DNA from: Dictyostelium discoideum
Taxonomy: Eukaryota
Assembly: GCA_000004695.1 (NCBI GenBank)
Contig: CM000151.3
Span: forward strand, 6,432,001 to 6,496,000
Direction of reading: 5' to 3'
DNA length: 64,000 nucleotides
Below the pieces are notes generated by a model. It saw only the letters and a list, made by a program, of their open reading frames with translations. It did no database searches and was not told the DNA's origin. The translations under genes and the position numbers were made by a program. Positions 13,170 through 56,217 of this stretch are shown here, piece after piece (position 1 is the first letter of the stretch; each line of letters opens with the position of its first letter).

Positions 13170-13300
13170 AGGAATTTTTGGCTGGGCATTTTAAATATTG
13201 TTCCATTAAATAAAAAATTTAAATCTTTAATCCCAATCAATTTTATCTAAATTTAACAGCCAGGTCAAGATTTTAATGTTAAAAATAATAGCCATCCTAA
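13170..13300 (+). pseudogene. Decayed fragment of the NlpC/P60 gene 3' region: penultimate-exon remnant, intron, and start of last exon. Its intact counterpart is at 54635..56479.
   Basis: 13241-13275 'ttttatctaaatttaacagCCAGGTCAAGATT' matches the reverse complement of 54686-54720, which is the last-exon acceptor plus 'PGQD' of the NlpC/P60 gene. 13180-13215 resembles the 'GPGHVVMYIGNGN' exon more weakly. Confidence 0.45.
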
Positions 13301-13379
13301 TAAAAAAAAGAAACAAAACAAAAAAAAAAAAAAAAAAATATTTGATAAGGAAAATTATTACAAATCTAAATTTATTAAA

Positions 13380-13475
13380 TTTGTTGATCATTTTGTATTA
13401 CTTTTATTTTCAAATTATAAAGAAAGTTCGAGAAATTATTAATCGATAATATTGAAGATGAAAACAATTCCCAAT
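13380..13475. repeat. About 100-bp non-coding element shared in the same orientation with 54318..54420.
   Basis: tttgttgatcattttgtattacttttattttcaaat...gagaaattatta...gataatattgaagatgaaaacaattcccaa is about 85% identical to the 54318-54420 copy. Confidence 0.6.
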
Positions 13476-13627
13476 TTTAATTTAAACAATATATATATAT
13501 ATATATATGGTTAATTAATTTAGAAATTGGATTTACAAACTACTAATAATAAAATCCAATTTTTTTAATTTTTTTTAAAATAAAAAAACAAAAAGTTAAA
13601 AATTAATTTTTAATTTTAATAATTTAT

Positions 13628-14224
13628 TTAGTTTTTTAAAATGAAACCATTTTTTGGAGACTTTGAAATGAACCTATAAATTTGTTCCAATGATAAATGT
13701 TTAATATTTGAAGTATTTCCATTCAATATAAATACAAAGCCACCTGGTTCCAATTTTAGTAAACCTGGGTGCGAATATCCATTACCATTATAATATACTA
13801 TAGTATTGGTTTTAACTAGTCTCATTACTTCATTTCTAAAATTATTATTATTTCTATTTCTAAAATTATTATTATTATTATTATTATTTGGATTATTATT
13901 TGGATTATTATTTGGATTATTTGGATTATAATGGGTTAAATCTTTCATTTTTATTGAGGAACTATCTTTGATTTTATTTTTATTTTTATTCTTTTTATTT
14001 TTAATTTCTTTTTTAAAACAAAAGCAACCACAACAAAATATTAACTTTAGAATATTTCTAATGATTGGAAATTTAAAACATAAGACAATCACTATTACTA
14101 TAACTATAAGAGCTGTCAATAATAATGTAAATTTAGTTGCACAAATTTTTAGTTGTGTATAATAACAAACAACATTTAATCTATAATTATAAAAATAAGT
14201 AAAGGTTAGATAATTAGTTTTTAG

Positions 14225-14313
<89 letters not shown>

Positions 14314-15748
14314 GTTATTATTATTATTATTATTATTTTTAATTACATACAAATTTGGACAAACATCATCACAAGTAAATTCAGAACCAATATTTAAAGA
14401 ATCACCATCTAAAGAGTTATCACCAGATTGAGCACCATTATCAATTTCAGTATCAGAAGTATTAAAATTAATTCTTATACTATCGATAACTTGAGCCACT
14501 TCATTATATAAATCACCAAAACAATGATATGATGAATCTAATTTTGAAGTAGTATAAACTTGAAATACAAAACTATAAATTTCCTTTGATTTAATGGTTA
14601 CTTGTTGATTATTGATAGGATTAATATCACCAGTACAATTAATGATTGTCATTGTATAGTCTGCATTGATTGTACCAGTATTTTGGACGTTTACTCTTAG
14701 TACACCATTTTTTGACATTGATTCAAATCTATCGATTTGGTAATTTATAATTTTACCAGGTGAAATATTAACAATATATTGAAGTGAATCGGCTTTCAAT
14801 GTAATGGTTAACATTGTTCTATGGGATTCATCAAATCTAATTTTCAAAGATCTTGAATCTTGATTACCTGCAATCTGAACCTTTGTACCCAATTGAGAGG
14901 CTATATAATTTCCCTTCTTACCACTGGAAATCAATGCAACATCGGCATTATAATAATCTGCAATTTGATTTTGAAGACAAGAACCAAATAAAGCGGCACA
15001 ACTATTGGGTTGATTTTGAAAAGCACTATAGGAAACACCGATTTTATTACAAGTTAAACCTGATAAATCAAAGAAATTCTGATCCAACACCATACAAGTG
15101 TTTATAGAATTTGGTTGATTGTAGGGAAATACCACTTTCTTATCAGTGAATTGATTGATTTGAGTCGATGATTGAAAATCACCAATAATTCTAACAATTG
15201 CTTGACTAAATGTATCCATACCCATTGGAGCTGAATTTGATAGTATAATATCTTGAGTGATTGGATTTTGATTATAACTATAGGTTAATGTCGCTGTTAT
15301 TGTATATTCAACTTGAGTTTTTGCAACATTATAAACATCATATTTCACCGAACTAAATGATAAACAATGTGCTGATGATGATTTGGACCCTAATAATGAA
15401 CAACCTAAATTTGCTCTTGAATTTTGATCGGCACCAACATAATCTGAAAAAGAACAACTACAACAAAATCCTTGACTGTCTCTAATTAATTTACCATTGG
15501 CATCTATTGCACCTGGACATGTATGATCAGTTGGTTTATCTTTACAACCACTAGTTAAAACATAATCAGTTTTATAAATAACAGTTTCTTTTGGTTGATA
15601 AGCTACATTTTGTACATAAACTAATGGATAATTTATAAATGTTTCTGATTTTTTAAATTTTACTGAAATTGGTATAACTAATGTTTTTAATTTACCATTT
15701 TCATCTTTAATTTCACTAACTTGAAAATTAAATGTTTCTGAATTTTCC

Positions 15749-15805
<57 letters not shown>

Positions 15806-16087
15806 ATATTAAAAAAAAAAAAAAATTAATACATATTATTTATTTTATATTTTATATTTTTTTATTTATTTATTTTTTTATTTATTTTTTTTTACTTTTT
15901 GTGAATCTATGTAAAGTGAAACTACTAATTTTTTATCACATTTTAAATTTGTTTTATCTTGGTCAGCTAATTCAGTACCATCGAGAGTACAAGATTCAAT
16001 TGAGCTTGACGAAATGATTCCACACCATATTAAATTTATTTTTATAAAAAAAATAAAAATTGAAAAAAAGATCAATTTTTTGATCAT
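13628..16087 (-). CDS. Type-I membrane glycoprotein with a HAP2/GCS1-like domain, a candidate gamete fusogen. Three exons: 16087..15896, 15747..14351, 14180..13628 (about 713 aa).
   Basis: Real ATG at 16087. Signal peptide MIKKLIFFSIFIFFIKINLIWCG. Donors GTAAAA (15895) and GTATGT (14350); acceptors tttttag (15748) and ttatag (14181). Phases are consistent (2142 nt). The ectodomain contains 'GKLIRDSQGFCCSCSFSDYVGADQNSRANLGCS', matching the conserved HAP2-GCS1 'SQGFxCxC' core. There is a single TM helix ICATKFTLLLTALIVIVIVIVLCF, followed by a Cys-rich juxtamembrane tail CCGCFCFKK and an Asn/Pro-rich cytoplasmic tail. The (AAT)n run lies in intron 2. The HAP2 assignment rests on motif recall, not a search. 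Confidence 0.6.
15752..15808. repeat. (AAAT)n microsatellite inside intron 1 of the HAP2-like gene.
   Basis: aaataaataaataaat... x14. Confidence 0.9.
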
Positions 16088-16276
16088 TTTTTTTTAGTGC
16101 TTTAAAATAAAATTTGCATTTTTTTTTTTTTTTTTTTTTTGATTTTTAATTTTGATTTTTTTTTTTTTGATTTTTGAATTGGCTAACTCGATTACTGAGA
16201 AAGTTTTAATAATAAAATTAATCATATGATTAATGTTGGTGTTATTATTATTTTTAATTATTTATTTATTTTTTGG

Positions 16277-16319
<43 letters not shown>

Positions 16320-16581
16320 TAAATTATTTTTATTTTATTTTATTTCATTTCATTTTATTTTTGGCCACTTTTTACATGTTATAAAAAATTTTAATTGAAA
16401 AAAAGAAAAAAAAAAAAAAAAAATTTTATTCATTAAACCATTAACTTTTTTTTTTGAATGGAATTGATTTTTATACCAATTGGAAATCCTGGTCATTTTT
16501 GTTATTTTTTAATTTCCCAACCACTTAAAAATTATAAAAAAATAAAAAAAAAAAATAAAATTTAATTCGATTTTTTTTTCC

Positions 16582-16612
<31 letters not shown>

Positions 16613-16690
16613 TCAATTCCATTTTAACCAAAATAATAAAACATAACATTTTTTTTTTTTGTATAAATACATAATAAATAAATAAATAAA

Positions 16691-18078
16691 ATGACATTAG
16701 ACCCATATTCAGGATCAGTCGATTGCCGTGACTGGAAGAAATCAGCAATTAAAAAAGCTATTGAAGATGGTATATTTAAAGAACATGACTATGTAATGCT
16801 TTATAATCTTGACGAATTCAGAGCACTTGCCAAAGAAGCCTGCGACAACTTAAAAGGATTACAAACTATGGCAGTTAAATGTAATCCAGTTATGAGCTTA
16901 ATGAAAGAAGCAATTAAAGCTGGTCTTGGTGCTGAAGTTGCTTCATTTGGTGAATTAAGAATTGCAGAAATAGCTGGTTTTGAACCATCTGTAAGTATTC
17001 CAAAAATTTTTAATTCTTTTAAAATAAAAAAAAAATAAAAAAATAAAAAAATAAATCCTAATTTTTTTTTTTAATGAAAAAGAAAATTATATTTGATTCA
17101 CCAATTAAAACAAAAAAAGAATTAGAATATGCATTAAATTTAGGTGTTGTAATTAATATTGATAATTTTGAAGAATTAGAAACTATAGAATCAATTGTTT
17201 CAAAATTTTCAAAGGAAAAATATGAAAGTCTTTCGTTGGGTATTAGAGTGAATCCACAAGTTGGAGCAGGTAAATTAACTGATCTTAGTACAGGTGTACC
17301 AACATCTAAATTTGGTATTGGTATTGAACATAAAGATAAGATCATCGATGCCTATGTACGTAACAAATTTTTAAAGGGAGTTCATATTCATGTTGGATCA
17401 CAAGGTTTTGAAATTTCAAATATATCAGAATCTGCAGTTAAAGTTATGAATTTAGTGAAAGAGATTAATGCACGTGATGATACAAAATCTCAAATTACAT
17501 TCTTTAATATGGGTGGTGGTTTATCAGTAAACTTTGAATCAGAAGAGACTTCACCAACTTTCACTCAATATGCCAATCACATGAAACAATTATTACCAGA
17601 ATTATTCAATGGTGAATTTTTATTGATTACCGAATTTGGTCGTTCCTATTGGGCAAAATGTGGTGTCGTAGTTTCAACAGTTGAATATACAAAATCAAGT
17701 GGTGATCGTGAAATCGCAATTTGTCATGCCGGTGCAAATATGTACATTAGAACCGTTTATCAATTCCCATTGTGGAGAATTAGAGTAACCATTTTCGATT
17801 CAAATGGTGAATATAAAACTGGAAATGAAAAAATCACAGATATCGCTGGTCCTTGTTGTTTTGCCGCTGATGTTTTAGTAAAAGAAAGATTATTACCACC
17901 AATTAAAAAAGATGATTTCATTATGGCACATGATAGTGGTGCTTATATGCTTTCAAGTTATTCTCATTATAATTTAAGATTAGCTCCACCAATTTTCTCT
18001 TTTAATACCACAAATAATACAATTGAATTAATTAAAAAAGGTGAAACTATTGAAGATAAAATTAATTTCTTTTCTTAA
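16691..18078 (+). CDS. PLP-dependent decarboxylase of the Orn/DAP/Arg decarboxylase family (fold-type III; ODC/DapDC-like). Two exons: 16691..16990, 17083..18078 (431 aa).
   Basis: ATG at 16691. Donor GTAAGT at 16991; acceptor gaaaaag at 17082; phase 0. 'AVKCNP' matches the PLP-lysine motif (YAVKCN). Also present are a Gly-rich 'FNMGGGLSV' loop, 'HIHVGSQ', 'EFGRSY', and C-terminal 'AGPCCFAADVL' (the substrate-specificity Cys region). The exact substrate cannot be assigned. Confidence 0.75.
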
Positions 18079-18282
18079 AAAAATAAAATTATATTAAAAT
18101 TGTAAATCATTTTTAAACTTTTTATTTTATTAATTAATAATAATAATAATTAATAATAAAATGATTAAATAAAAAAATAAATAAAATAAAAAATTTTAAA
18201 TTAAAGGAGAAATACAAGATATTTATTATTAAATTGGAAAAAAAAGCCAATTATTATTATTATTATTATTGGTTTTTTTTTT

Positions 18283-20161
18283 TTAAAAAAGATCAGAAAT
18301 TAAATCTTTTGACGATGGTTTACAATTTTCAGGAATATCAAATGAAGCAATGATTTGTTTTGAAACTTTGGTAACTTCAAAACAAAGATCTTGAATTAAG
18401 AATGGGATTGATTGAGCAACATTTGGTGAGATTAAGTGATTTGAAACGAACCAACCTAAATCTTCTTCAATGGAGACAAGAGCGTCCAACATAATTAAAT
18501 GAGCTAATGGTTTAACGTTTTTAAGTTTTAATGTATTGATAGAGTTTTGGAAAACGATTTTAGTCATGTGAGCAAAACCTAATTTGACAGCCCATGGAAT
18601 TGCATTGTTAAAAGCGAAATAAGCAGGTTCTTTAGAGTTGCTAATGATTTGTTTTAATTCGGCCAAACGAATCTCTTCTCTAGTTTCAAATAATTGATTA
18701 ATATTTGAAAAATTGAATAATAACGATTTGGCATCTTCACCATCTAAATAGATACGATTGGTAGTGGTATTTGTTTGTTTTTGTTTTACACCTAATAAAT
18801 ACTTGGCCAATTGTTGCATGAGAACAGTATTATCACCTTCATATGTACAAACGATATCACAATCATTTTTAAATTCAGCTATACGATTTGCTGAACGGTA
18901 ACCTTGACCACCACAAGCTTCACGACAAGTTTGGAGTGCTGCAACACAGAACCAACTGTAAACTGCTTTGATACCTGAGCAATGGGCATGGATTGAAGCT
19001 GGTAATTTCTCTTGACATAATTCATTGGTTAAACGTTGAATGTAAAGATCAAACAAGATGGTTCTTGCCAATGGTGCCATAAGACGACGTTGTTGTGAAC
19101 TGAGAGTAATCAATGGAAGCTCATTATTTGCAGATGGACCAAACTGTTTTCTAATATGTGAGAATTCAATAGCAATAGAGAGGGAGGTTTTGGCAGCACC
19201 TGAACAACCTTTAGTGATTGCCATTCTACCAACAATGAATGGTGCCATTGTTGCAGCGAAATTCTTTATTGGTGTATTGAATTGACTCTTGTAAACACCG
19301 TCTTCGCTAACATCACTATATTTGTTTAAAAGGTTCTCTCTTGGGATACGAACTTGATCGAAACGAATTTGACCATTATCAATACCATTCAAACCTAACT
19401 TATGACCACAATCTTTAATGGTGATACCTTTCATGATTGCACCACTCTTTGGACAACGAAGTGGTACAACCAATGCATGAACACCATAATTTGTACCATC
19501 AATGATTAAGTTTGCGAAAACAGTAGTGTAGGTAGCATGAAGATAAGAACCACCAATCCAAAACTTTTCACTTGTTGGTGTTGGTGAATGAATGATAAAC
19601 TCTTTAGTTTGTTTATCGTAATGTGCAGTAGTTTCAATACCACGAACATTTGAACCATGACCAATCTCTGTCATTGCAAAGCAACCCATTGTCTTGAGGG
19701 TATTAGCATCTTCAATATATTTCTCATGTCTTGAGGTACCTAAAAACATGATTGTACCTCCAAATAATGTATAATGAACACCCAATTTGGTACAAACATT
19801 GTTATTATACAATGAAAACATTTCTACAACACCAGCATATCTGTGAAGGTTATTCTTAATATCAGTCAAATGAATTAATCCACTATTTGCAACAGCAACA
19901 CATTGTTCAAGTACTAATTGTCTATAGGTAGCCATATCCAATCCAATGAAATTCTCTTTGAATTTTGGATGATTTCTAATGAATTCTCTTGCTGCATCCT
20001 TATATTTACTTGCTTCAACTGAATCAATTAATAATTTTAATTCTCCAACATTTATATTTGCATCAATTGAATTAAATAATTCTTTTTCTAATACTTCATT
20101 TTTATTATTTGTTGTTTGACTATTAACATCTAAATGTTTTTTAATCTATATTATATATATG

Positions 20162-20204
<43 letters not shown>

Positions 20205-20364
20205 GGTATTAGTAACTACTTAAATATTGTTAATAAAAATAAAAAAAAAAAAAATATATATATTTAAATATTTTATTATAAAATATGTATGTATTAATAT
20301 TAATAAACTGAAAAAATAAAACTGATTATTTAATATTTACAATTTCAATTCTATTTTTATACAT
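18283..20364 (-). CDS. Acyl-CoA oxidase, tandem copy 1. Two exons: 20364..20341 (MYKNRIEI), 20145..18283 (628 aa).
   Basis: Real ATG at 20364. Donor GTAAAT at 20340; acceptor atatag at 20146; in frame with the long ORF. ACOX signature 'ACGGQGYRSANRIAEFKNDCDIVCTYEGDNTVLMQQLAKYLL'. About 95% aa identity to the copy at 22072..24104. Confidence 0.8.
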
Positions 20365-20849
20365 TGTTTGAGAGAGATAGAAAGAGAGAAATTAGGATTG
20401 TGTAGAAAAATAAAAATAAAATAAAAAAAAAAAAAAAAAAAATTAAATAAAAAAAAAAAGGTGAAATTTTTAAAATTATTTCATTAAAATTTAAAAAAAT
20501 AAAAAAAAAATGAAAATTTAAAATTTAAAATTTAAAAAAAACAAAAAAAGTGTCTCATCGCGTTATGAAATATCTAAATAAATGATGCCATAAAAATAAA
20601 TTTGAAATTTCCAATGCAATTGGCAACCATTATTTTCATTTTTTTTTTTTTTTTTTTTAAGCCAAAAACGATTATATTAAATCATGAAATGAAATTTCAA
20701 ATAAAAGGCAAAAAAAAAAAAAAGAAAAAAAAAAAAAAATTATTTTTTGTAAAAAAAAAAAAAAATATTATTTTCAAATTATGAATACTAATATTTATTT
20801 CAATTTAGTAATGTCATATGTTAATAATTTTGATTTTTTTTTTTTTCTT

Positions 20850-21171
20850 TTAAAATAATGATAAAGTTCCAATTAATTCTCCACCTAAAATTAAACCCTT
20901 AACACCACCTTCAATTCCTCCAACTAAAACACCACTAGCAACACCAACTAAACTACCTAACAAACTTCCTAAAACATTGAATTGTGCTTTTTCGCCACCA
21001 TAATTAACACTTTGTAATGAACTTGAGGCAATTTCATTCTTTGAGTTATTTTTAATTGAACCGATTTTAGTGATTGATTCTATCGTTTTATATTAAAATA
21101 TTAATTAATATAGTTTTATTTATATAAAAATAAGAAAAAAAAAAAATATGAAACTTACTTAAAATTGACAT
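20850..21171 (-). CDS. Small (80 aa) glycine-zipper membrane protein. Two exons: 21171..21159, 21079..20850.
   Basis: ATGTCAATTTTAA|GTAAGT donor at 21158; acceptor gatag at 21080; phase 1 is consistent. C-terminal 'GSLLGSLVGVASGVLVGGIEGGVKGLILGGELIG' is a GxxxG glycine-zipper TM motif. It is present only in copy 1 of the ACOX tandem duplication. Confidence 0.5.
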
Positions 21172-22071
21172 TTTTAATTATTTTTATTTGTTTTTTTTTT
21201 TTTTTTTATATTAAGTTTATTGTTTTTTTTAGTTTTTTAATTAAATGATTAATTTAAAAAATAATCTTCATTTAAATATGAAAAAAAAAAATTTAGGAAA
21301 AGAATTATTTAAACAATTTTATTTTAAAAAAAAAAAAATCATATGAACCAATTATAGATTATTCTAAAATTTCGACAACACGATTGGACAAAATAATAAA
21401 CAAAAAAAAAAGGTATTAAAACATTATTAATTTTTAAAAAAAAAACATAAAATAAAATTTATAAAAACTTTGACCCTTTTATAAGAATTATAGAGATATA
21501 TTTAATGATTTTATTCCATACACAAGTAAGTTGTTTTGTTTTAAAAAAAAAAAAAGAAAACTAAAAAAGTAATGATATTAAAAAAAAAAAAAAAAAATGG
21601 GGTGTGTTAAATCTGATATATATAGTTAAATATTTTTTTACCTTTTTTTTATATTAATTACCACACAATTAAATTAATTAAACTAATAAAATGTGGTATT
21701 GGTTTAATGTCTATTTATAGGATTAAAATGAAAACGAAAAAAACCCAATCATAGCATATACAAATTTATATTATATCTTTATCTTTTTCAATTATTTTTA
21801 TCATTAAAAAAAAAAAAAAAAAAAAAAATTATCCTTCATTTAATTAATTATAATTATATTATTTCATTTTTTTTTTTAATTAAAAATATAAATAATAATT
21901 TTATTAATATTAATAGAATTATTATTATTATTATTATTATTTTAAAATTATAAATTATAAATTAAATAAAAATTAAAATTAAATAATTTTAATTTATTTA
22001 ATTTTTATTTAATTTTATTATTATTATTTTTATTATTATTATTATTATTGTAATTATTATTGGTCATTTTT

Positions 22072-23950
22072 TTAAAAAAGATCAGAAATTAAATCCTTTG
22101 ATGATGGTTTACAATTTTCAGGAATATCAAATGAAGCGATAATTTGTTTTGAAACTTTAGTAACTTCAAAACAAAGATCTTGAATTAAGAATGGGATTGA
22201 TTGAGCAACATTTGGTGAGATTAAATGATTTGAAACGAACCAACCTAAATCTTCTTCAATGGAGACGAGAGCATCCAACATAATTAAATGAGTTAATGGT
22301 TTAACGTTTTTAAGTTTTAATGTATTGATAGAGTTTTGGAAAACGATTTTAGTCATGTGAGCAAAACCTAATTTGACAGCCCATGGAATTGCATTGTTAA
22401 AAGCGAAATAAGCAGATTCTTTAGAGTTGTCAATGATTTGTTTTAATTCGGCCAAACGCATCTCTTCTCTAGTTTCAAATAATTGATTTATATTCGAAAA
22501 ATTGAAAAATAACGATTTGGCATCTTCACCATCTAAATAGATACGATTGGTAGTGGTATTTGTTTGTTTTTGTTTTACACCTAATAAATACTTGGCCAAT
22601 TGTTGCATGAGAACAGTGTTATCACCTTCATATGTGCAAATGATATCACAATCATTTTTAAATTCAGCTATACGATTTGCTGAACGGTAACCCTGGCCAC
22701 CACAAGCTTCACGACAAGTTTGGAGTGCTGCAACACAGAACCAACTGTAAACTGCTTTGATACCAGAGCAGTGAGCATGGATTGAAGCTGGTAATTTCTC
22801 TTGACATAATTCATTGGTTAAACGTTGAATGTAAAGATCAAACAAGATGGTTCTTGCCAATGGTGCCATAAGACGACGTTGTTGAGAACTGAGAGTAATC
22901 AATGGAAGCTCTTTATTTGAAGATGGGCCAAATTGTTTTCTAATATGTGAGAATTCAATAGCAATAGAGAGGGAGGTTTTAGCAGCACCTGAACAACCTT
23001 TAGTGATTGCCATTCTACCAACGATGAATGGTGACATTGTTGCAGCGAAATTCTTTATTGGTGTATTGAATTGGCTCTTGTAAACACCATCTTCGCTAAC
23101 ATCACTATATTTGTTTAAAAGGTTCTCTCTTGGGATACGAACTTGATCGAAACGAATTTGACCATTATCAATACCATTCAAACCTAACTTATGACCACAA
23201 TCTTTAATGGTGATACCTTTCATGATTGCACCACTCTTTGGACAACGAAGTGGTACAATAAATGCATGAATACCATAGTTTGTACCATCAATGATTAAGT
23301 TTGCGAAAACTACAGCATAGGTAGCATGAAGATAAGCGCAACCAATCCAAAACTTTTCACTTGTTGGTGTTGGTGAATGAATGATAAACTCTTTAGTTTG
23401 TTTATCGTAATGTGCAGTAGTTTCAATACCACGAACATTTGAACCATGACCAATCTCTGTCATTGCAAAGCAACCCATTGTCTTGAGGGTATTAGCATCT
23501 TCAATATATTTCTCATGTCTTGAGGTACCTAAAAATATAATTGGACCTCCAAATAATGTATATTGAACACTCAATTTCGTTAAAATATTATTATTATACA
23601 ATGCAAACATTTCTAAAGCGCCTATATATCTGTGAAGGTTATTCTTAATATCAGTAAAATGAATTAATCCACGATTTGCAATTGCAGCACATTGCTCAAG
23701 TACTAATTGTCTATAGGTAGCCATATCCAATCCAATGAAATTCTCTTTGAATTTTGGATGATTTCTAATGAATTCTCTTGTTTCATCCTTATATTTACTT
23801 TCTTCAACTGAATCAATTAATAATTTTAATTCTCCAACATTAATATTTGTATCAATTGAATTAAATAATTCTTTTTCTAAAACTTCATCCTTATTATTTG
23901 TTGTTTGACTATTATTAACTTCTAAATGTTTTTTTATCTATATTATATAA

Positions 23951-23981
<31 letters not shown>

Positions 23982-24104
23982 CCTATTAGTATTGGTAATA
24001 TTTATAATAAAAAAAAATATTTTATTATGTATATTTGAAATATACATGAATTTAAAAAAATAAAACTATTTAATATTTACGATTTCAATTCTGTTTTTAT
24101 ACAT
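22072..24104 (-). CDS. Acyl-CoA oxidase, tandem copy 2. Two exons: 24104..24081, 23937..22072 (629 aa).
   Basis: Same exon structure as copy 1 (MYKNRIEI exon, GTAAAT donor, tatag acceptor). Nucleotide identity to copy 1 is about 95% through the CDS and about 500 bp of 5' flank. Confidence 0.8.
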
Positions 24105-24943: not shown

Positions 24944-25319
24944 TTATTTATTTAATTTTTTTAAATTTATTGGTAAAATTTTAGAAAATATAGAAATTGT
25001 TGGTTTACTTTTTGAATTTATTCTTGAATTTACATTTTTCAAATAGTTTAAAAGATGATGTTCATCATATTTAATAATTCTTTTTCTTGGGGAAAGATCA
25101 ATTGTTGATAAATATTTTGCCAATGGTTTTGGATGATATTCAACTAAATGTTCTAAAATATGACTATGTCCTCTTGAATAAGATATTGAAATATGTTCTT
25201 TAGTTAATGGTAATGATAATGGTGATACAAATATCATTGACGATAATCCATTAATTGATAAATGAATCGGACTTGATGGTGATGATGAAATTTGTTGTTG
25301 ATTTTTTGTTGGTGATAAA

Positions 25320-25357
<38 letters not shown>

Positions 25358-41530: not shown

Positions 41531-41639
41531 AAAAGGATACACATTAAATTTCTCACAGTGTAATAGTAATTTAATTAATTTAATTTTAAATTCTAACTTA
41601 TTTTTATACTAGATAGTTAAAAAAAAAAAGATAATAATA

Positions 41640-42960: not shown

Positions 42961-42999
42961 TTTATTAAATAATTCAAATTTGGATGTATGTATTTTTTT

Positions 43000-44783: not shown

Positions 44784-44906
44784 TTTTTTTTTTTTTTTTT
44801 TTTAATATTGGATTAACAAGATTGATATATGTCCATCTGTGTTAATACGAGTTTTTATTTAATATTTATTTATAGGCTTATCATTTAAGCTGAAGGGTTA
44901 TTTTAA

Positions 44907-47900: not shown

Positions 47901-48611
47901 TAAGTATAATTGGCTGTAGTTGATTATGCTATTGTTAAGGTATATTCTGTCTAGTCTCCTTTCCAAGATTCTTGTGAGGTTATTGTTTGTGTTGTGTATC
48001 GTTCTTGAGAAGGTGGGTCTTTTATTTAGTTGGTCCATATCCATTAGGTTATTTGAAATTCTGATGGCTTCGATTACTGTGGCCATCTCATCTGGGGATT
48101 GTGTTGTCAAGTTGCCTTGGTCATCATTTGATGTGTGATTGTCATTGAAGTCTAAACAATTGAAGTCGCCTGCTATGATGTCGATGTTTTTTTTAGGGTT
48201 AGACGTTAGGTTGTGGTATTGGTTGTTGAAGTGTTTGTTTAGTGTTGAAGCTAGTGTTTTTCTTTTATCAGGTTGGGCCGGGGCGTATATGGCCAAGATT
48301 CTCGTTGTGGTATCTTTTATTAGAATGTCTGATATTATTAGTCTACCTTCTATTATGAATATTGGTGAGAGTTTTATGTTTTGGTTGTTGTGGTTTAGTA
48401 TTCCTATTCCGTTGCCTCTGTTGGTTGCGCTAATGATGGAGCCAGGAAATAGCTGGTGTGCTTGTGTTGCGTCGGCGTTGAGTTCATTGACTATGGTTAG
48501 TGCCAATGAGTTTGGGGGGGATTGGGATTTGATAAAGTCTGTTTTGTTTTTGAAGGAGGTGTCAGTGCCCCAACCTCTGACATTCCATTGGTTGATTTTG
48601 ATTACTACCAT
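44907..48611 (-). CDS. Retrotransposon ORF2: apurinic-like endonuclease + reverse transcriptase + C-terminal CCHC zinc knuckle (1234 aa).
   Basis: Real ATG at 48611. The N-terminal EEP fold 'LAIYAPAQ...GDFNCLDF...SDHNF'. RT motifs 'PGPDGIPN', 'FEKAFDSISH', 'QGDPLSPTLF', 'SFADDSA' (YXDD box). C-terminal 'CPLCKEDMSKDPYGHLFFSCK'. Confidence 0.85.
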   Translation of the reverse strand: MVVIKINQWNVRGWGTDTSFKNKTDFIKSQSPPNSLALTIVNELNADATQAHQLFPGSIISATNRGNGIGILNHNNQNIKLSPIFIIEGRLIISDILIKDTTTRILAIYAPAQPDKRKTLASTLNKHFNNQYHNLTSNPKKNIDIIAGDFNCLDFNDNHTSNDDQGNLTTQSPDEMATVIEAIRISNNLMDMDQLNKRPTFSRTIHNTNNNLTRILERRLDRIYLNNSIINYSQLYLRNLIPPKINDIPLSDHNFLSTTFTLPNIQMNKRRWRLKKSSILSSIMLKKIDFLLNDYSRELSSNHNSISFSQLNSLLNKIKQLYTEFQKQNDYNNKANIKNLISLLETEFKDQAFATLSAINESKKREEQLKQELNNYCEETSLKYISARIKKRHNDFTINAVKDAQGRTINKQELIEEEYVKYYSNLYDYKEDDPPSHYEMLENWTVTRDSTWDNLENEFTSQEILEVIKQLNPHKSPGPDGIPNLFYITHKEKLAPILASAFNDTLRNPHLISKNYKEGLIITIPKKGDPELIKNRRPITLANCIYKIHSKLINNRIIPILTKVINHNQKGFVPGRFIIDNIISMNELINYCNDKRINGIITLYDFEKAFDSISHGSILRSLQHINIPTNIINLIMNLLTKSEARIEINGRTTIPFEIKRGVKQGDPLSPTLFVLVIEALARKILQDDRITGLPLNNSNHREKFQSFADDSASMVPDSQQLELVLQHFNSFCKATSSKLNIDKSSSILIGNPDNTNQRIPISTNPERYLGYFFTGKGITRKMPEILNTIRSSLVLWKTTDSTIKTKTNILKAFALSKLTYYSYVENFKEEELNQINKLVEWFLSAPNNKNASGFQVINLMRTKRARYPLKVGGWNIWNIELRQLAQKLWIINQFILALETKQTNSSHHKSWEYQIQKNKFTSRYLKENLDEWNKIRIKKAIFNNNLTSIKNENGQPLSLAEWYTTIQDQNPTIPKTEFQSSLNLRGYSYNQLFNNILKIKDPKTRDTMFRFHARCLPINYLHNKQCPLCKEDMSKDPYGHLFFSCKKTKQFIKINKLKNFIYITTGKGKNWHHTRIRQNNNFINRITPKLSPTAKKDQEVNADYANHRFHKEYFEWNYKAIDYDLTRSFAYRNLMALILHNIWIWICNQIYSEDPLTNESLSYSSLLKKWHKLATLEYIKKAKDLKNLSAKDHNNFKDPKILLTSTIKLRKTTANYYCIPESSLPNIISFDQFI

Positions 48612-49864
48612 TATGAGATGATATCGATCTCCTCTTGGGAGTCGTATAGCTGCGGTTTGGATGGTGAAGGGTAGATACTCTCTATGAAGCTCTCAATGAT
48701 TCCTTTCCTTTCTTTTTTGACAGGTGTCTTAGGGGTGGATGGGATGTAAGGGTTGCTTCTGTTTATTGTTGGTGAGAGTTGGGTGACCTCGTTGTTTGAG
48801 TGGATTTCCTCGTTCTTGCGTTTATGTGATGGAGGGATGTTTGGTGTCTTCTCTCTGTTTTCCGAGGATGAATGGATGTTAGTGCTCGTTTTGTTGGCAT
48901 TGTCTTTTTGGATGGCGTTGGATGTTGTGGTAGTGGTTGTGGTGGGTTTGACAGATTGAGATTCTGCTTGGTTTTTGGGGGGAAGAGGTTGAGAGGACTT
49001 TTTTGATTGGGCTTTTTTCTCTTGGGTTGATTGTTTATCAGACTGATTGTTTGCTGGGTCATTTGTTTGTTGTTGTGGTTTTGGTTGAGAGGATTTGATT
49101 GCTATCCTGTTTTGGGTGTTGGGAGGATCATCTGTCATCTCATCTTCTAATGGTTCTTCCGTGTTGTTTAACTCTACTTTCTTATTTTTCTTTTGTGAGG
49201 AGTAGGTTTTGGTGGCCGTTCTGATGGTAAAGTTGGCGATTTCTGTATTGTGTTGGCCAGATTTCATTTGATCGCCTATTTTGCATTCTATTAGACCGAA
49301 TACTAGGAGGTGGTCGGTGGAGTATATAGTATGGTATATTGCATAGGGTATTTCTTCTGCAAAGGCAGTTTTGATGAGGGCGTCCACTATTCCTGCCTTT
49401 TCTCTTGGAATTCTTACTCTTCCTGTGAGGACGTGGTAGTCTCTACTGGAGGTGATGAAGGTTCCCAATTTGCTTCTATCTCTAATGATATTTAGGAGAG
49501 ATTGTTCGTTTTTAATCATCAGGTGTATCATTTTTCTAGTTCCTTTGCCTATGTATATCTTGTCGATTGGGATATCGTAGTTTGAGAGTGTTTTTCTCAT
49601 TTCTTCTAACCCCATGAGATCCATTTTGGGGAATTCGAGTGTAATTGGGTAGAATCCGTTGTTTTTCTCGTAGGTTGAGAGCGCAGTCATGTTCAATATG
49701 GTCTCGCAGTATTTGGAGATGTCTTTGAGGCCTATTGATAATTTGGGATAGGTCTCCTTTATCTCTGCTGTTTTTGTGGAGAATTCCTTAATGAAGTTCT
49801 CTGATGCCTCGTCCATATGGGTGGAGGGGTTGGCCATTTTAGCCGCGTCTGCGTAGGAATTCAT
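48611..49864 (-). CDS. Retrotransposon ORF1 (417 aa, basic Gag-like; Pro/Thr/Gln-rich C-terminal half).
   Basis: Real ATG at 49864. The stop overlaps the ORF2 start. Confidence 0.7.
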   Translation of the reverse strand: MNSYADAAKMANPSTHMDEASENFIKEFSTKTAEIKETYPKLSIGLKDISKYCETILNMTALSTYEKNNGFYPITLEFPKMDLMGLEEMRKTLSNYDIPIDKIYIGKGTRKMIHLMIKNEQSLLNIIRDRSKLGTFITSSRDYHVLTGRVRIPREKAGIVDALIKTAFAEEIPYAIYHTIYSTDHLLVFGLIECKIGDQMKSGQHNTEIANFTIRTATKTYSSQKKNKKVELNNTEEPLEDEMTDDPPNTQNRIAIKSSQPKPQQQTNDPANNQSDKQSTQEKKAQSKKSSQPLPPKNQAESQSVKPTTTTTTTSNAIQKDNANKTSTNIHSSSENREKTPNIPPSHKRKNEEIHSNNEVTQLSPTINRSNPYIPSTPKTPVKKERKGIIESFIESIYPSPSKPQLYDSQEEIDIIS

Positions 49865-50134
49865 CTCGATGGGATTCCTTTGAATCGGCGATTTGGTAAG
49901 TTATATCTGTAGATCGTGGTGGATTGGTGATTTTTTTTGAAAGATTGGTTAAAATTGACCGAGATTAAGGATAGAAAAGGATGAATTACTTTTCACGTGT
50001 ATCTTGTATCCTCTTGATCGCGGTACGGTTTTTTTCGTATCTTGTATCCTCTTGATCGCGGTACGGTTTTTTCAAACATAACTTTTGTTTAATTAAAAGG
50101 TTGAGCCCAATAAGAGAATCGAACCAGGGACATT

Positions 50135-50147
50135 ATATGGTTTCTTG
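50135..50147 (-). terminator. Pol III terminator (oligo-T on the tRNA strand) immediately 3' of tRNA-Leu(CAA).
   Basis: Minus strand reads ...ctttatc a acag TTTTT ccc. Confidence 0.7.
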
Positions 50148-50228
50148 GGAAAAACTGTTGATAAAGGCGAGATTCGAACTCGCGAAGCCGAAGCATAAGA
50201 ACTTGAGTCTTACCCATTTGACCACTCT
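50148..50228 (-). tRNA. tRNA-Leu (anticodon CAA), class II, 81 nt, followed by a T5 terminator.
   Basis: Read on the minus strand: acceptor GGTAAAG/CTTTATC (7 bp including one G-U). D-arm CCA-GAGTGGTCAAA-TGG. Anticodon arm TAAGA-CTCAAGT-TCTTA (loop C-U-CAA-G-U). Variable arm containing GC-UUCG-GC. T-arm GCGAG-TTCGAAT-CTCGC. Discriminator A. Terminator TTTTT at 50135-50147. Confidence 0.8.
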
Positions 50229-50420
50229 GGTACTTTACCTTTTGAAAATAATTGAGAATTACGGTTGATATTGACCACTGTGATACTTTACCTTTTGAAA
50301 CCATGAATTACGGTGAGTCTTACCCATTTGACAACTCTGATACTCTACCTTTTGAAAACCATTGGGAATTACGGTTGATTTTGACCACTTTGGTACTTTA
50401 CCTTTTGAAAACCTTGGCTA
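50190..50420. repeat. Tandem array of about 4 units, roughly 60 bp each. Each unit is a copy of the tRNA-Leu 5' half (about 35 nt) plus about 25 nt of upstream flank (ttttgaaaa..attacgg).
   Basis: 'gagtcttacccatttgaccactctggtactttacc ttttgaaaataattgagaattacgg' is followed by 'ttgatattgaccactgtgatactttacc ttttgaaaccatgaattacgg', then 'tgagtcttacccatttgacaactctgatactctacc ttttgaaaaccattgggaattacgg', then 'ttgattttgaccactttggtactttacc ttttgaaaacc'. Confidence 0.7.
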
Positions 50421-50684
50421 TATGGGTTAAATAGAACCACCAGGATTGGAATTGAAATTCTGCTTGAATTGTAAATAAAAATGTAATTGAAGTATAATTT
50501 AAGCTTTCAATTGAAAAAATCTCTCTTTTTAGCCTGGCCAGTACTTTATTTGAGAGTTAAAATAAAAGTGTTAAATTCCAATCCTGGGGTTTTCAAGTAA
50601 AAAAATAAAAATATTAAAATATTAAGATTAAAAATCCAATTAAATATTTTCATCTTTTTTATTTTTACCTTTTTTATTATTTTA

Positions 50685-50725
<41 letters not shown>

Positions 50726-50756
50726 GGATTGAGGTTTTAAAATTATAGTTGGTTAA

Positions 50757-51330
50757 TCTTGAGTTCTATCTATACAAAGCTTAACTAAAGATATAAAAGC
50801 ATCTTCAATGTTAATTGCCTGTTTACACTTATTTCTTTGAATGTAATATCCAAAGAATCGGCAAATTCTTGGGCCAAAAAAGGGTCAACCACTTTTCGTG
50901 AGACTAAATCATTTTTATTTCCAATTACCATTTTAATGACATTTTCATTTGCATATCTTTCGATATCTTGTATCCATGACGGAACATTTTCAAATGATCT
51001 TTGATCTGTAACATCATAAACTATAATAACTCCATGGCAACCTCTATAATGTGAATTATGAACTCAAAATCGATTTTGTCCAGCCGTATCCAAAATGTGA
51101 AGTTTTATTGGTTTACCTTCGATATAAACTGTCTTTATATTAAATTCAATACCGATTGTTGTTAAATGTGTTTCAGTAAATGTATCATCTGCAATTCTTA
51201 ATAAAATATTTGTTTTACCTTTTTTTATTTTTTTATTTTAAAAAATAATTAATAATTAATAATAATTTATATATTATTTATTATTTATTACAGTAAATAT
51301 TTACCAACTCCACTATCACCTGCAAGTGCA
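50757..51330 (-). pseudogene. Rab-family small GTPase gene with an in-frame TGA (Rab pseudogene, or a sequence error). The 5' exon is unresolved.
   Basis: Minus-strand translation: '..GDSGVGK' then an intron (GTAAAT...ag), then '[102 protein letters not shown]...'. G1, switch, DTAGQ, and NKxD boxes are all present. The stop replaces the residue after ERF. Confidence 0.6.
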
Positions 51331-51394
51331 AATTTAAATATACAAAAAAAAAAAATCTATATTAATTTTTTTTTTTTTTGTCGAAAGAAAAAAA

Positions 51395-51660
51395 AAAATG
51401 AAAAAATTCATTGAATAATAAGTTGGCATACAAATAAAGAAATTCTTACTCATATTCTTTACTCATTTTAATTGTATATTTTATAAAAATTATATAACAT
51501 TTTTTTTTTTCATAGACATATCAAAAAGAAAATAAAAAATAAAAAAATAAAAAAAAAAATTCATTGAATAATAAGTTGGCAGATATATACAAAAGAAAAT
51601 GAAAAATAAAAAAAAAAAAAAAAAATTTATTGAATAATAAGTTGGCAGATATATACAAAA
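51395..51660. repeat. Three direct copies of a 30-bp motif 'ttcattgaataataagttggca(t/g)a' upstream of the Rab pseudogene.
   Basis: Copies at 51398, 51558, and 51628. Confidence 0.6.
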
Positions 51661-51784
51661 ATTTCAGCGTTAAGGTGGTGAAAAGTAATTTTATTCCAAC
51701 TGGTCAGCTCCTCACCCTTATTGAATAAACATGAAATTCAAAAAGTATAAAAAACATTGATTTATGTGATTATCAGAATTGAAT

Positions 51785-51822
<38 letters not shown>

Positions 51823-51968
51823 TTAACACATTTATAAAATTAAAATAATTTATTGTAGGGTAATTTTTTTTTTTTTTTTAAAATTAAATTTAATAAAGGG
51901 AAAAAAATAAAAACTAATTAGATTTTTTTTTTTTCCATTAATATTTTTTAAATAAATGGAATTGTTAA

Positions 51969-52009
<41 letters not shown>

Positions 52010-52403
52010 TTTTATGTTTATTAGTTTTTAAAGATTATAAAAAATTTTTTTTAAGGGAAGTTTATTATAAAAAATAAAGTGGGAAAATTTCTTTATATTG
52101 GCATATTGTGTATAGATTATATTCATAACACAAATATTAAATCTGTATTTGAAGATTGTTACAATAATAATTCAATAGTTTCCATCTCATTTTTTAGAAA
52201 TAATAAAAAATAAAATAAAATATACAAATAATAAAAAAAAAAAAAAATTAAAAAAACCAAAAAAATAAAAAAATATTTAAACTAAAAAAAAAAATTAAAA
52301 ATTAAAAAAAGCTTATCCAATATAAAAAATTTAAATATTATTATATTTTTTTTTTATTTTTTTTATAAACAATTTAAAAAAAAAAAAAAAAAAAAAAAAA
52401 CAA

Positions 52404-52868
52404 ATGTCAAACTTTCAAAATCAAGAAATTAATATTGGTTCGGTTGTACTTGGTGATAGATCATTAAGTAATGGTCAATATGGTGATAAAAAGAGTATTC
52501 GTCATGTTGATTTTGATGTACCATTTTCAGGTATTCCAAAAGTTTCTTTAGGAATTAATTTCTTGGATGCATCATCTTCAGAACAAATTCGTATTCGTTG
52601 TATTGCTCAAAATATAACATCAAAAGGTATGGACATTTCATTCACAACATGGAATGATAATACTGTCTATGATGTAGCAGTTGATTATGTTGCTATTTAT
52701 AATCCAAAATTTGGAAATTCAAATAATAAAAATAATAATGATAATAATATTAGTAATACAAATACAAACCAACAAAGAAATCAATATAATGATAATGAAA
52801 ATAATAATTATCAACAACAAAGCCAACAAAGTTATTATGAAAATACAAATAATAATAACAATAATAAA

Positions 52869-52926
<58 letters not shown>

Positions 52927-53465
52927 GTGAAGATAAACAACAACAACATCAACAACAAGGAAGATATCAAGAAAATAACAATTATAATAGAAATGATAAT
53001 GATAATGATTATCAATCTCAATCTCAATCTCAATCTCAATCTCAATCTCAATCTCAATCTCAATCACAATTACAATCAAATAATTTTAATGGTAAAAATG
53101 TAAATATTAGATCAAATAAATTTAATAATTATATTAGAGATAATAATGGTAAAGGTGATATGTCACAAACTGCAAGAAATAATGAAACATGGATAATAAC
53201 ATCTGCCAATAATAATGGAGATTTATTTTTTATTCATAATAGATATAATCATTATCTTTCAAGTAATGGTGATAGAGTATTGGTTGGTGAAAAGAATGAT
53301 TCTTCAATTTGGAAGATTTCACAACGTAGACAAGGTGTTTACTCAATTCAAAACTATAAAAATTCAAATTATCTAAGTTCAACTGATAGAAATGAATTAA
53401 AAACAAATGTTAAAGTTGTAAATTCTTGGGAAGAATTTAATTTTAATTTTGTTCAAGATTCTTGA
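52404..53465 (+). CDS. H-type lectin domain protein with a central Asn/Gln-rich low-complexity region, a (QS)n repeat, and a C-terminal beta-trefoil-like region (353 aa, single exon).
   Basis: Real ATG at 52404. The N-terminal 'HVDFDVPFSGIPKVSLGINFLDASSSEQIRIRCIAQNITSKGMDISFTTWNDNTVYDVAVDYVAI' fits the H-type (discoidin-II C-terminal / Helix-agglutinin) lectin pattern. The (CAATCT)9 hexanucleotide repeat at 53018-53071 encodes QSQSQS. Confidence 0.55.
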
Positions 53466-53489
53466 ATGAAGAAATAATTTGAATTTAAT

Positions 53490-53525
<36 letters not shown>

Positions 53526-54061
53526 CATTCAATATTAAAATATCAACAATAACAACAACACATCCATTCATTTTCAACAATTAAAGTATCTCTTTTGTTT
53601 TAAAAAATAAATAAATAAATAAATAAAAAAAATCTAAAAAAGTTGGTTTATTATTTCTTTTCTGTTGAATTTTCTGATTTATATTTTAAGAATTTTTTTT
53701 TTTTTTTTTTGGACTTTCCAAAATATTTTAAAAAAAATTAAATATTTAAATTCCAAAATTAAATCATAAATGATTTTATTATTAAGGTTAATTTAAATAG
53801 AGTTTAAAACTTTTTTTTCAAACCATACTTACCTGTCATTATCAATATGTGATCATAAAGGAATATTTGATTTCAAACATTTCAGACCATTGCACTTTTA
53901 GGTTTGTTTTTTTTATGATCTTCCAAAAATAGGATACAAGTGACAATTTATGATAGTCGTGGATGTTGCGCTTGCGCACTCCCACAACACACCCTATTTA
54001 ATTTTAAAGAAAAATAATAATAATAATAATAATAATAATAATTATAATTATATCACTAATA

Positions 54062-54250
54062 ATTAAAATAATAATAATTTTAGAATCAAGTAATGAGACT
54101 AGTTAAAACCAATACTATAGTATATATATCATAATGGTAATGGATATTGGCACCCAGGTTTACTAAAATTAGAACCAGGTGGCTTTGTATTGAATGGAAA
54201 TATTTCAAATATTAAACATTTATCATTAGAACAAATTTATAGGTTCATTT
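54062..54250 (+). pseudogene. Decayed fragment of the HAP2-like gene 3' end (cytoplasmic tail through the stop and about 60 bp of 3' flank). It is inverted relative to the intact gene at 13628..14180.
   Basis: 'aataattttagaatcaagtaatgagactagttaaaacc...ggtaatggatattggcacccaggtttactaaaattagaaccaggtggctttgtattgaatggaaat...ttatcattagaacaaatttataggttcatttcaaactaa' is about 88% identical to the reverse complement of 13628-13830. It carries a frameshifting insertion, a 6-bp deletion, and a 30-bp terminal deletion. Homology may extend to about 53935 ('ggatgttgcgcttgcgc' ~ 'tgttgtggttgcttttg'). Confidence 0.6.
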
Positions 54251-54317
54251 CAAACTAAATAAATTAAAATTAAAAATTTTTTTGTTAACTTTTTGTTTTA
54301 TTATTTTGATATATTGA

Positions 54318-54420
54318 AAATTTGTTAATCATTTTGTATTATTTTTATTTTCAAATAATTAATAAAATTTGAGAAATTATTATATTATGATAATATTGAA
54401 GATGAAAAAACAATTCCCAA
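54318..54420. repeat. Second copy of the roughly 100-bp shared element (see 13380..13475), in direct orientation.
   Basis: tttgttaatcattttgtattatttttattttcaaat...gagaaattatta...gataatattgaagatgaaaaaacaattcccaa. Confidence 0.6.
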
Positions 54421-54482
54421 ATATTTATACGGTGGAATAAATTTAAAAATTAGATTATAAATAATAAATATTTATTATTTGA

Positions 54483-54513
<31 letters not shown>

Positions 54514-54634
54514 ATATTTGGTTTTAAACCATTTTTTATTTTTAGTTTTGAAATAATTTTTTCTTTATCGAATATTTAATATAAATATTTTTTTTTTTTT
54601 TTTGTTTCTTTTTTTAATAGGATGGCTATTATTT

Positions 54635-56217
54635 TTAACAATAGGTACGACAACCAACATAATCTTCAGTGTAAGCTGGAATGACATGACAATCTTGACC
54701 TGGCTGTTAAATTTAGATAAAAAAGGTTAATAAAGATTTAAAATTTTTAAAATTTCTTTTTGATGATGAAACTAAATAATTAAAATACATACTTGAGGAC
54801 ATTCAGCAACATTTCCATTTCCAATATACATTACAACGTGACCTGGGCCTGGAGCTTCACCTGGGAAGGTATAAAAGAAGAGAGCTTTAAAAGTTGGATT
54901 AAAAAGTAATTTATTTATTAATTAGATTTCATTTTTGAATTTTATCCTTTTTTTTTTTAAAAAATATAAAAAAAAAAAAAAAAAAAAAAATACTTACCAC
55001 CAATTTGACAGGCACCAGTGTTGGCTGGACCGCAATCACCTTGTGAATCTAAATTTTCAACAACAGTGCTACCACTTCCAGATGATGAACCGCTACCACT
55101 TCCAGATGATGAACCGCTACCACTTGAGCTACCACTTGAGCTACCACTACCACTTGAGCTACCGCTACCACTTGAGCTACCGCTACCACTTGAGCTACCA
55201 CTTGAGCTACCACTTGAGCCACCACTGGAGCTACCTGAGCTACCTGATGATGAACCACTTCCGGAAGCTAAAATAAAAAAGGAGTTAATTAAAATTATTT
55301 CAAATGAAAAAGAAAAAAAAAAAAAATTTTGTTCTAATATTTACATGAACCACTGCTACTTCCACTTGAACTACCTGATGATGAACCAGCTATTTATTTT
55401 ATTTAAAATTTAAATTAGTTAGTTTTAAAATCCATATAAAATATTAAAAGATAAAAGAAATACGTTACATGAACTACCTGATGATGATCCAGCTTTTTTT
55501 TTGGAAAAAAAAAAAAAAAAAAAAAAAATTAATTTGAATGTTAAATTTATAAGAAAACGAAAAAAAAAAAAAAAAAAAAGAAATACATACATGAACTACC
55601 AGATGATGAACCACTACCAGATGAAGTACCTGAACTGTTTGGTCCACTACCACATGGTTGACCTAAAATAATAATTTAAATAAATGTAAATAATCCAGAA
55701 ATAAAAAAAAAAAAAATTTCGAAAACTAAAATATTATTTTATAATTACCTTGAGTGAATTGTTGAGAAGCAGTTCTTAAAATACCACTCCAACCAGCTTG
55801 AATATATGATGTTGAGGTAAGACCGGAACAATCCTTAAAAAAAAAAAAAAAAAAAAAGTTAATACCAAGTAAAATTATATTACTGCAAATCAGTTTTTTT
55901 TTTTTTTATGTAAAATACATACCATACCACCAGATCCACCACAACCACATTGTGTACCCTAAATAATAGAAAAATCCATTAGTTTATAAAATTAAATATT
56001 AAATAATTGAATTAAATGATACAAACACCCCAAACATATGGACCTAAATTATTTTTAAAAAAAAAAAAAAAAAATTAAACAATATTAGTTACTTGTTTTG
56101 GAAAAAAAAAAAAAAAAAAAAAAAACTTTAATTAAAATTGGCAATTATCAACCTACAACCACATGATGCATAATTTGAAGCAATGGAACTGTTTTTAAGA
56201 AAAATGGTTAATGTTAA

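Follow-up and report, generated by a model that had tools for sequence, protein, structure and literature searches.

In the window examined here, i.e., the 64,000-nucleotide stretch of contig CM000151.3 from position 6,432,001 to position 6,496,000, a unit of ~0.82 kb that joins the 3' end of a cell-wall-hydrolase-like gene (NlpC/P60) to the 3' end of a gamete-fusion gene (HAP2-GCS1) is present twice, at 13097-13913 and 54012-54832, in opposite orientation and 40 kb apart. At each locus, one of the two genes is intact and only a pseudo-fragment of the other, cut off sharply, is present; the two are arranged 3'-to-3'. The best fit, to which a probability of about one half is assigned, is that a staggered break gave rise to an inversion of 40 kb, with a small flip of the spacer between the two gene ends coming later. 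The feature is real but ordinary, in that its pattern is known from the ends of chromosomal inversions.

A first-pass annotation of this DNA had described reciprocal duplicates of this kind, each locus having an intact gene plus the other gene's 3' pseudo-fragment, and had named a self-comparison as the way to check them. Both self-BLAST and the gene models bear that layout out. At the expected places, 13099-13913 matches 54830-54012 in inverted orientation with E=3e-103, and this is the third-ranked off-diagonal signal of the window, behind two obvious tandem duplications. For the block boundaries, a stricter scoring of the self-alignment was used, giving four inverted blocks of 84-88% identity and one direct block, as follows:

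13211-13279 and 54749-54684: inverted block, 85.5% identity
13277-13370 and 54640-54541: inverted block, 84% identity
13377-13474 and 54318-54420: direct block (element F), 87% identity
13577-13634 and 54307-54252: inverted block, 88% identity
13662-13900 and 54254-54016: inverted block, 88% identity

Hereafter, A denotes the NlpC/P60 3' end, B denotes the HAP2 3' end, and K denotes the spacer, which is made up of F and a microsatellite-rich part, X. Along the window, these parts and the genes to which they belong are:

13097..13370, plus strand (sense): A1, NlpC/P60 3'-end pseudo-fragment; aligns inverted with 54541-54832 at 82-85% identity
13371..13576: K1, direct relative to K2; F at 13377-13474 and X1 at 13475-13576, the latter with (AT)n and T-runs
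13577..13913, minus strand: B1, native HAP2 3' untranslated region (UTR) and last ~94 codons; intact open reading frame (ORF) continuous with HAP2
13628..16087, minus strand: HAP2-GCS1 (the 'W' copy); 3 exons, 713 amino acids, coding from 16087 to 13631
13914..54011: bracketed interval, ~40 kb
54012..54307, plus strand (sense): B2, HAP2-tail pseudo-fragment; aligns inverted with B1 at 92% identity (gaps excluded)
54308..54540: K2, in the same plus orientation as K1; F at 54318-54420 and X2
54541..54832, minus strand: A2, native NlpC/P60 3' end; 3'UTR, last exon (54706-54638), last intron and end of the penultimate exon
54635..56480, minus strand: NlpC/P60 gene; many short exons and Ser/Gly-rich linkers, coding from 56480 to 54638

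The order of the parts is therefore A> K> B> at locus 1 and <B K> <A at locus 2, with arms A and B inverted between the loci at 82-92% identity. The window contains exactly two copies each of A, K (with F) and B, and the ~120 kb of other loci that were compared contain no copy; none of the three was found in loci L001-L005 or L007. The ends of the unit are sharp. No earlier exons have left remnants beside either stub, as tblastn detected no further NlpC exons beside A1 in 11800-13096 and no upstream HAP2 sequence beside B2, which spans HAP2 residues 624-702 only, and a U1 gene lies ~25 bp from the end of B2. The NlpC fragment, previously placed from 13170, starts at ~13097 and includes the end of the penultimate exon. 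Between the loci, the copies are 8-18% divergent and differ by several indels. Mis-assembly, which the first-pass annotation wished to see excluded, was addressed with a second assembly (GCA_054883475.1, JBTAPE010000033.1) that is 99.76% identical to window positions 47450-63467 (16 kb). This assembly, one of the long-read assemblies of Holland et al. 2025 (PMC12745789), is from another isolate of the window's species; across locus 2 it agrees with the window at 1301 of 1301 positions, while it differs elsewhere. With so similar a second isolate, the D. citrinum clade (three isolates) would be a plausible source of the window.

The two intact genes have complete ORFs. The HAP2 gene matches PF10699 with E=1.7e-76 (258 bits vs a cut-off of 27.4 bits), and the W copy adjoins ODC, which is the ancestral context, based on synteny with P. 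violaceum (L005). Its stop codon, at 13628-13630, is within B1, which codes for a cytoplasmic tail resembling an NHL blade and has an (AAT)n poly-Asn tract at its end. The NlpC/P60 gene matches PF00877 at 37.2 bits when its exons are assembled (cut-off, 23 bits), has the DCSGL and H-V-V-M-Y motifs, is colinear over seven exons with its orthologues in D. purpureum and C. fasciculata (P0041 and P0042), and has a gene call at the corresponding position of the second assembly (L006 12232-14076). Relative to those orthologues, the window gene has acquired long Ser/Gly-rich linkers. A 108-residue query made from the conserved exons found homologues only in D. purpureum, C. fasciculata and two metagenome proteins, with no match among the annotated proteins of D. 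discoideum.

B is native to HAP2, because the last HAP2 exon of D. purpureum carries a homologous tail: in the genomic DNA of that species, the exon reads uninterrupted through a stretch homologous to all of B, ending in ...RTISKNPKYNLIN as compared with ...RFISKSPKNGFILKN for the window HAP2 (tblastn E=9e-5; BLASTP E=6e-8). This stretch (L002 ~5830-6400, GL871225.1) is spliced out of the HAP2 model deposited for D. purpureum (P0003), which appears to be mis-spliced at its 3' end. A2 is native because it is part of a working NlpC/P60 gene. Thus, B1 and A2 are the native copies, B2 and A1 are the derived ones, and the reciprocity is real. Of the penultimate exon, A1 retains ~40 bp at the end; the last intron, the last exon and the 3'UTR follow, with a 38-bp insertion in the intron and ~46 bp gone from the last exon, of which only PGQD... 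is left. Compared with B1, B2 has gained 4 bp, which shifts the reading frame, and has lost 6 bp at one place and ~30 bp at another, the latter loss taking with it the last 10 codons. In the coding core of B there are eight substitutions in ~175 aligned bases (two synonymous and six non-synonymous) and three indels, all of the latter in B2. Identity is 82-87% for A and F, neither of which is coding in either copy, and 92% for B, of which one copy is under coding constraint. As the native arms are split between the loci, a single event requires that A-K-B was once contiguous, and copying in one direction cannot explain both.

As a separate observation on B, the C-terminal tail of HAP2 (13631-13840, minus strand) resembles a single blade of an NHL-type beta-propeller (GNGYSHPGLLKLEPGGFVFILNGNTSNIKHL), which is unexpected in the tail of a fusogen. 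In an exhaustive phmmer search, the B peptide matched NHL-repeat propeller proteins only and no HAP2 tails (E from 6e-8 to 4e-4), and the Pfam NHL model gave no direct match to B.

The centre of the unit runs the other way from its arms. F had been reported as a 100-bp element in direct orientation; the orientation stands (z=23.7 direct vs 1.0 inverted, against shuffled controls), but the direct piece is the whole of K, ~205 bp. Against the same controls, K as a whole scores z=14.3 direct and -0.5 inverted, and X scores z=3.5 direct and -0.5 inverted. Since K and X also match in direct orientation only, the entire 205-bp centre, beyond F, is direct. F is conserved at 87%, as against 84-92% in the adjoining parts; being no better conserved than its neighbours, it gives no sign of special constraint. 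The suggestion that F might be a mobile or regulatory module finds no support in its mobile form. K has no K-specific terminal repeats or target-site duplication, with just generic AT-rich imperfect inverted repeats around it, and F and K have no Rfam match at the gathering threshold; a permissive Rfam scan of locus 1 returned only a chance PreQ1 match (E=0.33). There are two copies of K in ~105 kb of sequence from the window's species and none in the outgroup loci. Among the many imperfect AT-rich inverted repeats that flank K, a poly-A/poly-T pair at 13324-13346 and 13554-13576 was considered as the arms of a flip and set aside, as it would also flip 30 bp that are demonstrably unflipped. 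Recombination between the K copies was likewise rejected, since direct repeats yield a deletion or duplication and not an inversion.

Under the favoured explanation, the source of both loci would be a single junction at which HAP2 and NlpC/P60 converged with ~0.2 kb between them. The ancestral order would have run from Not1, across the site of a later break, to U1-H-lectin ... Ank-ACOX-ODC-HAP2> <NlpC-UBR. A staggered break at the junction would have nicked one strand in the (AAT)n tract of the HAP2 tail and the other strand in the penultimate NlpC exon, and a second break would have fallen ~40 kb off, beside the Not1 promoter. Fill-in and rejoining would then have inverted the HAP2-carrying segment, i.e., the block from U1 to the junction, leaving a copy of the junction at both ends. 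Each gene would thus keep a full 3' end together with the flank downstream of it, and beyond that flank would lie a dead stub, in antisense, of the gene that had been its neighbour. Later, a small event would have reversed the 205-bp K in one copy. A candidate for that step is a micro-inversion, such as might come from polymerase template switching between short AT-rich inverted repeats; alternatively, the ancestral spacer may have been palindromic and have undergone asymmetric loss, with one arm gone from each copy.

Several observations are consistent with such a history. By a derivation made for this analysis, only one polarity of the staggered-break model keeps both genes whole, and that polarity matches the observed layout; the model of Ranz et al. 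2007 (PMC1885836) with two staggered breaks, derived in the same manner, was rejected for giving the wrong arm order. As A and B are unique gene-derived sequence, the repeats look like the product of a rearrangement and not its substrate. The divergences also fit one event, because changes in B are expected in the pseudo-copy only and A and F are free to change in both copies. Judged by sequence divergence, the event is younger than the split from D. discoideum, given that orthologous sequence is ~8% diverged between the species even in genes and the HAP2 paralogues are ~17% diverged. The first-pass annotation's broader view of the two loci as the footprint of a duplication or inversion remains the best reading, with the inversion as something that we infer, and its argument that the direct orientation of F excludes a simple inversion between pre-existing inverted repeats holds. 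If the favoured explanation is true, an inversion can split a convergent gene pair harmlessly, each gene keeping the full shared 3' junction.

Other observations weigh against the staggered-break explanation. Adjacency of HAP2 and NlpC was seen in none of the three outgroups reached, although these are all distant or paralogous loci and make for a weak test. The gene that comes after HAP2 in P. violaceum is a YhhN gene; D. purpureum has HAP2 and NlpC on separate contigs, with GRIM-19 next after NlpC; and the D. discoideum hgrA locus is the site of a different paralogue, without the adjacency. The comparison with related dictyostelids that had been suggested earlier gave a shared ODC-ACOX-HAP2 order within the segment in P. 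violaceum but no ancestral HAP2-NlpC pair, and neither junction of the segment is present in any outgroup reached; the 40 kb would be inverted relative to an ancestor whose arrangement we infer. The pure model predicts that K is inverted, whereas K is direct, so a second event is required, and a search around K found no pair of inverted-repeat arms that fits both of its ends. Lastly, A is somewhat more diverged than twice the branch of the B pseudo-copy, in DNA that is AT-rich and prone to indels. An attempt to read the H-lectin gene beside NlpC as syntenic with a discoidin-like gene of D. purpureum was abandoned, as no sequence match backs the orthology.

Of the other explanations, a single complex replication-based event is unlikely but survives best. 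By fork stalling and template switching or microhomology-mediated break-induced replication (FoSTeS/MMBIR), or by origin-dependent inverted-repeat amplification (ODIRA), template switching would yield the inverted arms and the direct centre in one step, an internal switch leaving K direct, whether or not the 40 kb was inverted. The junctions all lie in very AT-rich or microsatellite DNA that offers microhomology, and template switching that generates inverted copy-number variants is documented (PMC10766183). In DNA so AT-rich, however, no diagnostic junction microhomology is distinguishable, and the process still needs HAP2 and NlpC as neighbours, or else several long-range switches. It is less parsimonious than a break plus a flip only through being harder to specify.

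Rather unlikely, too, is a history in which the two loci were never adjacent, K being a pre-existing repeat of 3' flanks and the antisense patches having been gained separately by ectopic templated break repair. In its favour, HAP2-NlpC adjacency is seen in no outgroup reached, and the order outward from the intact gene is alike at both loci (3' end, X, F, foreign stub), an agreement that would arise by accident 50% of the time and from which no inference is drawn. It does, however, require two mirror-image patch insertions at equivalent positions. A, K and B are similar in age, and K has only its two copies in ~105 kb of the window's species, none in the outgroup loci and no transposon hallmarks.

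About as unlikely is a larger inverted segmental duplication that took in both whole genes and was pared down by reciprocal deletions, with no inversion of the interval. It would reach the same end state of one intact gene and one stub per locus, and duplication with reciprocal decay is common, being seen elsewhere in the window's species for HAP2 itself. Yet both stubs end sharply without decayed upstream exons, the U1 gene is ~25 bp from the B2 end, and at least three events with coincidentally tidy ends would be needed.

The idea that the NlpC 3' flank (B-K-A) was duplicated one way, behind HAP2, so that the HAP2 ORF came to read into a foreign B could draw on D. discoideum hgrA stopping just where B begins and on the oddity of an NHL propeller blade in a fusogen tail, but it is refuted by the homologous tail that extends to the C-terminus in the last HAP2 exon of D. 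purpureum (E=6e-8) and by D. discoideum hgrA being a different, tail-less paralogue and not the orthologue. An assembly artefact, whether a chimeric join or a collapsed repeat, is equally remote, for the AT-rich, repeat-rich context merely raises the question with nothing specific behind it, a collapse would not leave copies that differ by 8-18% and several indels, the second assembly agrees with the window throughout locus 2, and the ORFs of the two intact genes are complete.

A more speculative thought, and quite a long shot, is that the stubs are still active. Transcripts that read through from HAP2 would carry ~270 nt antisense to the NlpC/P60 3' end, and NlpC read-through would be antisense to the HAP2 tail, making the two transcripts mutually antisense; the longest exact matches between stub and gene are 32 nt and 38 nt. 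The amoeba in question is competent for RNA interference. If the stubs are active, the mutual antisense of a former convergent pair would have been kept in trans and could couple the expression of a fusogen with that of a hydrolase, and the orientation of K relative to each gene would have been kept for orientation-dependent 3'-end signals. Alternatively, the two 0.8-kb arms might permit an occasional 40-kb flip-flop, in which case each reversal would swap a working tail for a broken one.

A second HAP2 paralogue came to light in the course of the comparison. In the second assembly, locus L007 (GCA_054883475.1 JBTAPE010000001.1:1641529-1662660) carries an HgrA-type HAP2, with the gene at 10001-13441, and is syntenic with the D. 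discoideum hgrA locus over ~20 kb at ~92% nucleotide identity in coding and non-coding sequence alike. The window HAP2 is ~83% identical to the L007 copy and has ODC-ACOX neighbours as in P. violaceum. The L007 gene is pseudogenised by a TCA>TAA nonsense change at L007 10223 and by a 1,817-bp insertion (11192-13008; 19% GC). The insertion looks like a non-autonomous DNA transposon, with terminal inverted repeats of ~140 bp (starting CCCATGCCAAAATTA...) and what appears to be a target-site duplication of 6 bp, CATAGT; neither the window nor any of the other loci compared contains a copy of it. The D. discoideum HAP2 protein (P0001, whose cluster includes an AX4 protein) stops exactly where B begins. 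Its gene, hgrA, was considered as an orthologue that had lost the B tail and was rejected as such, L007 showing that it occupies a separate paralogue site. In D. discoideum the copy at that site is the functional one. The species is reported to have hgrA and hgrB only (PMC4910948), and no W-type HAP2 protein of that species was among the results of the homology search. The two sister lineages therefore seem each to have retained a different paralogue of a gamete fusogen. Such opposite retention between sister species bears on reproductive isolation, and this by-product of the analysis is arguably of more biological interest than the duplicated gene ends.

The paralogues also bear on where the breaks fell. 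Homology between the HAP2 paralogues ends at ~13916 and the A-K-B unit ends at 13913, both within the same (AAT)n poly-Asn tract of the 13860-13930 region, and B2 and the D. discoideum locus (L001 ~12190-12300) end in (AAT)n as well. One (AAT)n tract seems to have served as a breakpoint twice, in the older HAP2 duplication and in the event that made the A-K-B copies. Tracts of this type, encoding poly-Asn, are abundant in these genomes and are thus relevant to how the genomes rearrange.

The window as a whole is ~78% AT with Dictyostelium-type genes. The interval between the loci was earlier called repeat-rich and accessory; the former is right, as it holds an ACOX tandem, a retrotransposon and tRNAs, but the latter is not, as it also holds conserved core genes and an ODC-ACOX-HAP2 order that is conserved in P. 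violaceum. Its genes include the body of HAP2, ODC, two copies of ACOX, an Ank protein, a THOC3-like gene, an Erf4-like gene and a UBX protein, in addition to tRNA-Ser, a TRE-type retrotransposon, tRNA-Leu, a Ras-like GTPase, an H-lectin protein and a U1 small nuclear RNA (snRNA) gene. The two acyl-CoA oxidase genes arose from a tandem duplication of 2.9 kb at 84.5% identity (17967-20851 and 21766-24608), and P. violaceum has one ACOX at the corresponding position. Two other features of the interval are:

43932-50007, minus strand: non-long-terminal-repeat retrotransposon; ORF2 with apurinic/apyrimidinic endonuclease and reverse transcriptase at 44907-48611, ORF1 at 48611-49864
53825..53986, plus strand: U1 snRNA, full-length match to RF00003 (60.1 bits, E=1.2e-14)

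The U1 gene has the ATACTTACCTG 5' end and an Sm-like site; its score of 60.1 bits is below the Rfam gathering score of 69.5, and a default scan misses it. The retrotransposon, which we take to be akin to the tRNA-targeted TRE3 type, is ~150 bp downstream of tRNA-Leu(CAA) and contains 850-bp tandem modules that are 99% identical (43942-44790 and 44784-45632). In the second assembly (L006 1-5051) the element is arranged differently from the window, so it is polymorphic. Nearby, at 50204-50417, is a tandem repeat with a period of 53-110 bp and 73-90% matches; it extends into the 5' part of tRNA-Leu (50159-50239) and may consist of partial tRNA-derived repeats.

Among known systems, inversion by non-allelic homologous recombination (NAHR) resembles the present case in having a segment bracketed by inverted repeats, between which more flip-flop could now occur. 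It differs in that the repeats here are fragments of two single-copy genes and their centre is not inverted, while the TRE retrotransposon is internal to the segment (~44-50 kb). The breakpoint arms, as the ends of the HAP2 and NlpC genes, belong to no repeat or transposable-element family. For K alone, the nearer comparison is with template switching between short imperfect inverted repeats, which inverts the spacer between them; this is a documented class of mutation (PMC8604942), and short-range template-switch mutations are the subject of PMC5453318. As in that class, a short segment is reversed in place with its flanks undisturbed and AT-rich imperfect inverted repeats around it. Unlike members of that class, K, at 205 bp, is long, and no arm pair is found at both of its boundaries. 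The closest parallel for the whole arrangement is in the Drosophila melanogaster group, where Ranz et al. 2007 found inverted duplications at 17 of 29 inversions, ranging from 46 bp to 1.9 kb with ~88% identity, and where in 12 inversions the duplication was of one breakpoint region only (PMC1885836). As in the staggered-break duplications of Drosophila, once-unique and partly genic sequence is inverted at the ends of a segment, with one copy functional and the other decaying. The unit size of 0.82 kb and identity of 82-92% are within the Drosophila range, and one breakpoint region is duplicated, as in those 12 cases. The differences are that the inversion here is a proposed one, that the central 205 bp are direct, and that the setting is a dictyostelid genome of ~78% AT with junctions bounded by microsatellites. 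If the staggered-break explanation is true, the window would provide a clean dictyostelid case of a rearrangement signature that is best documented in Drosophila.

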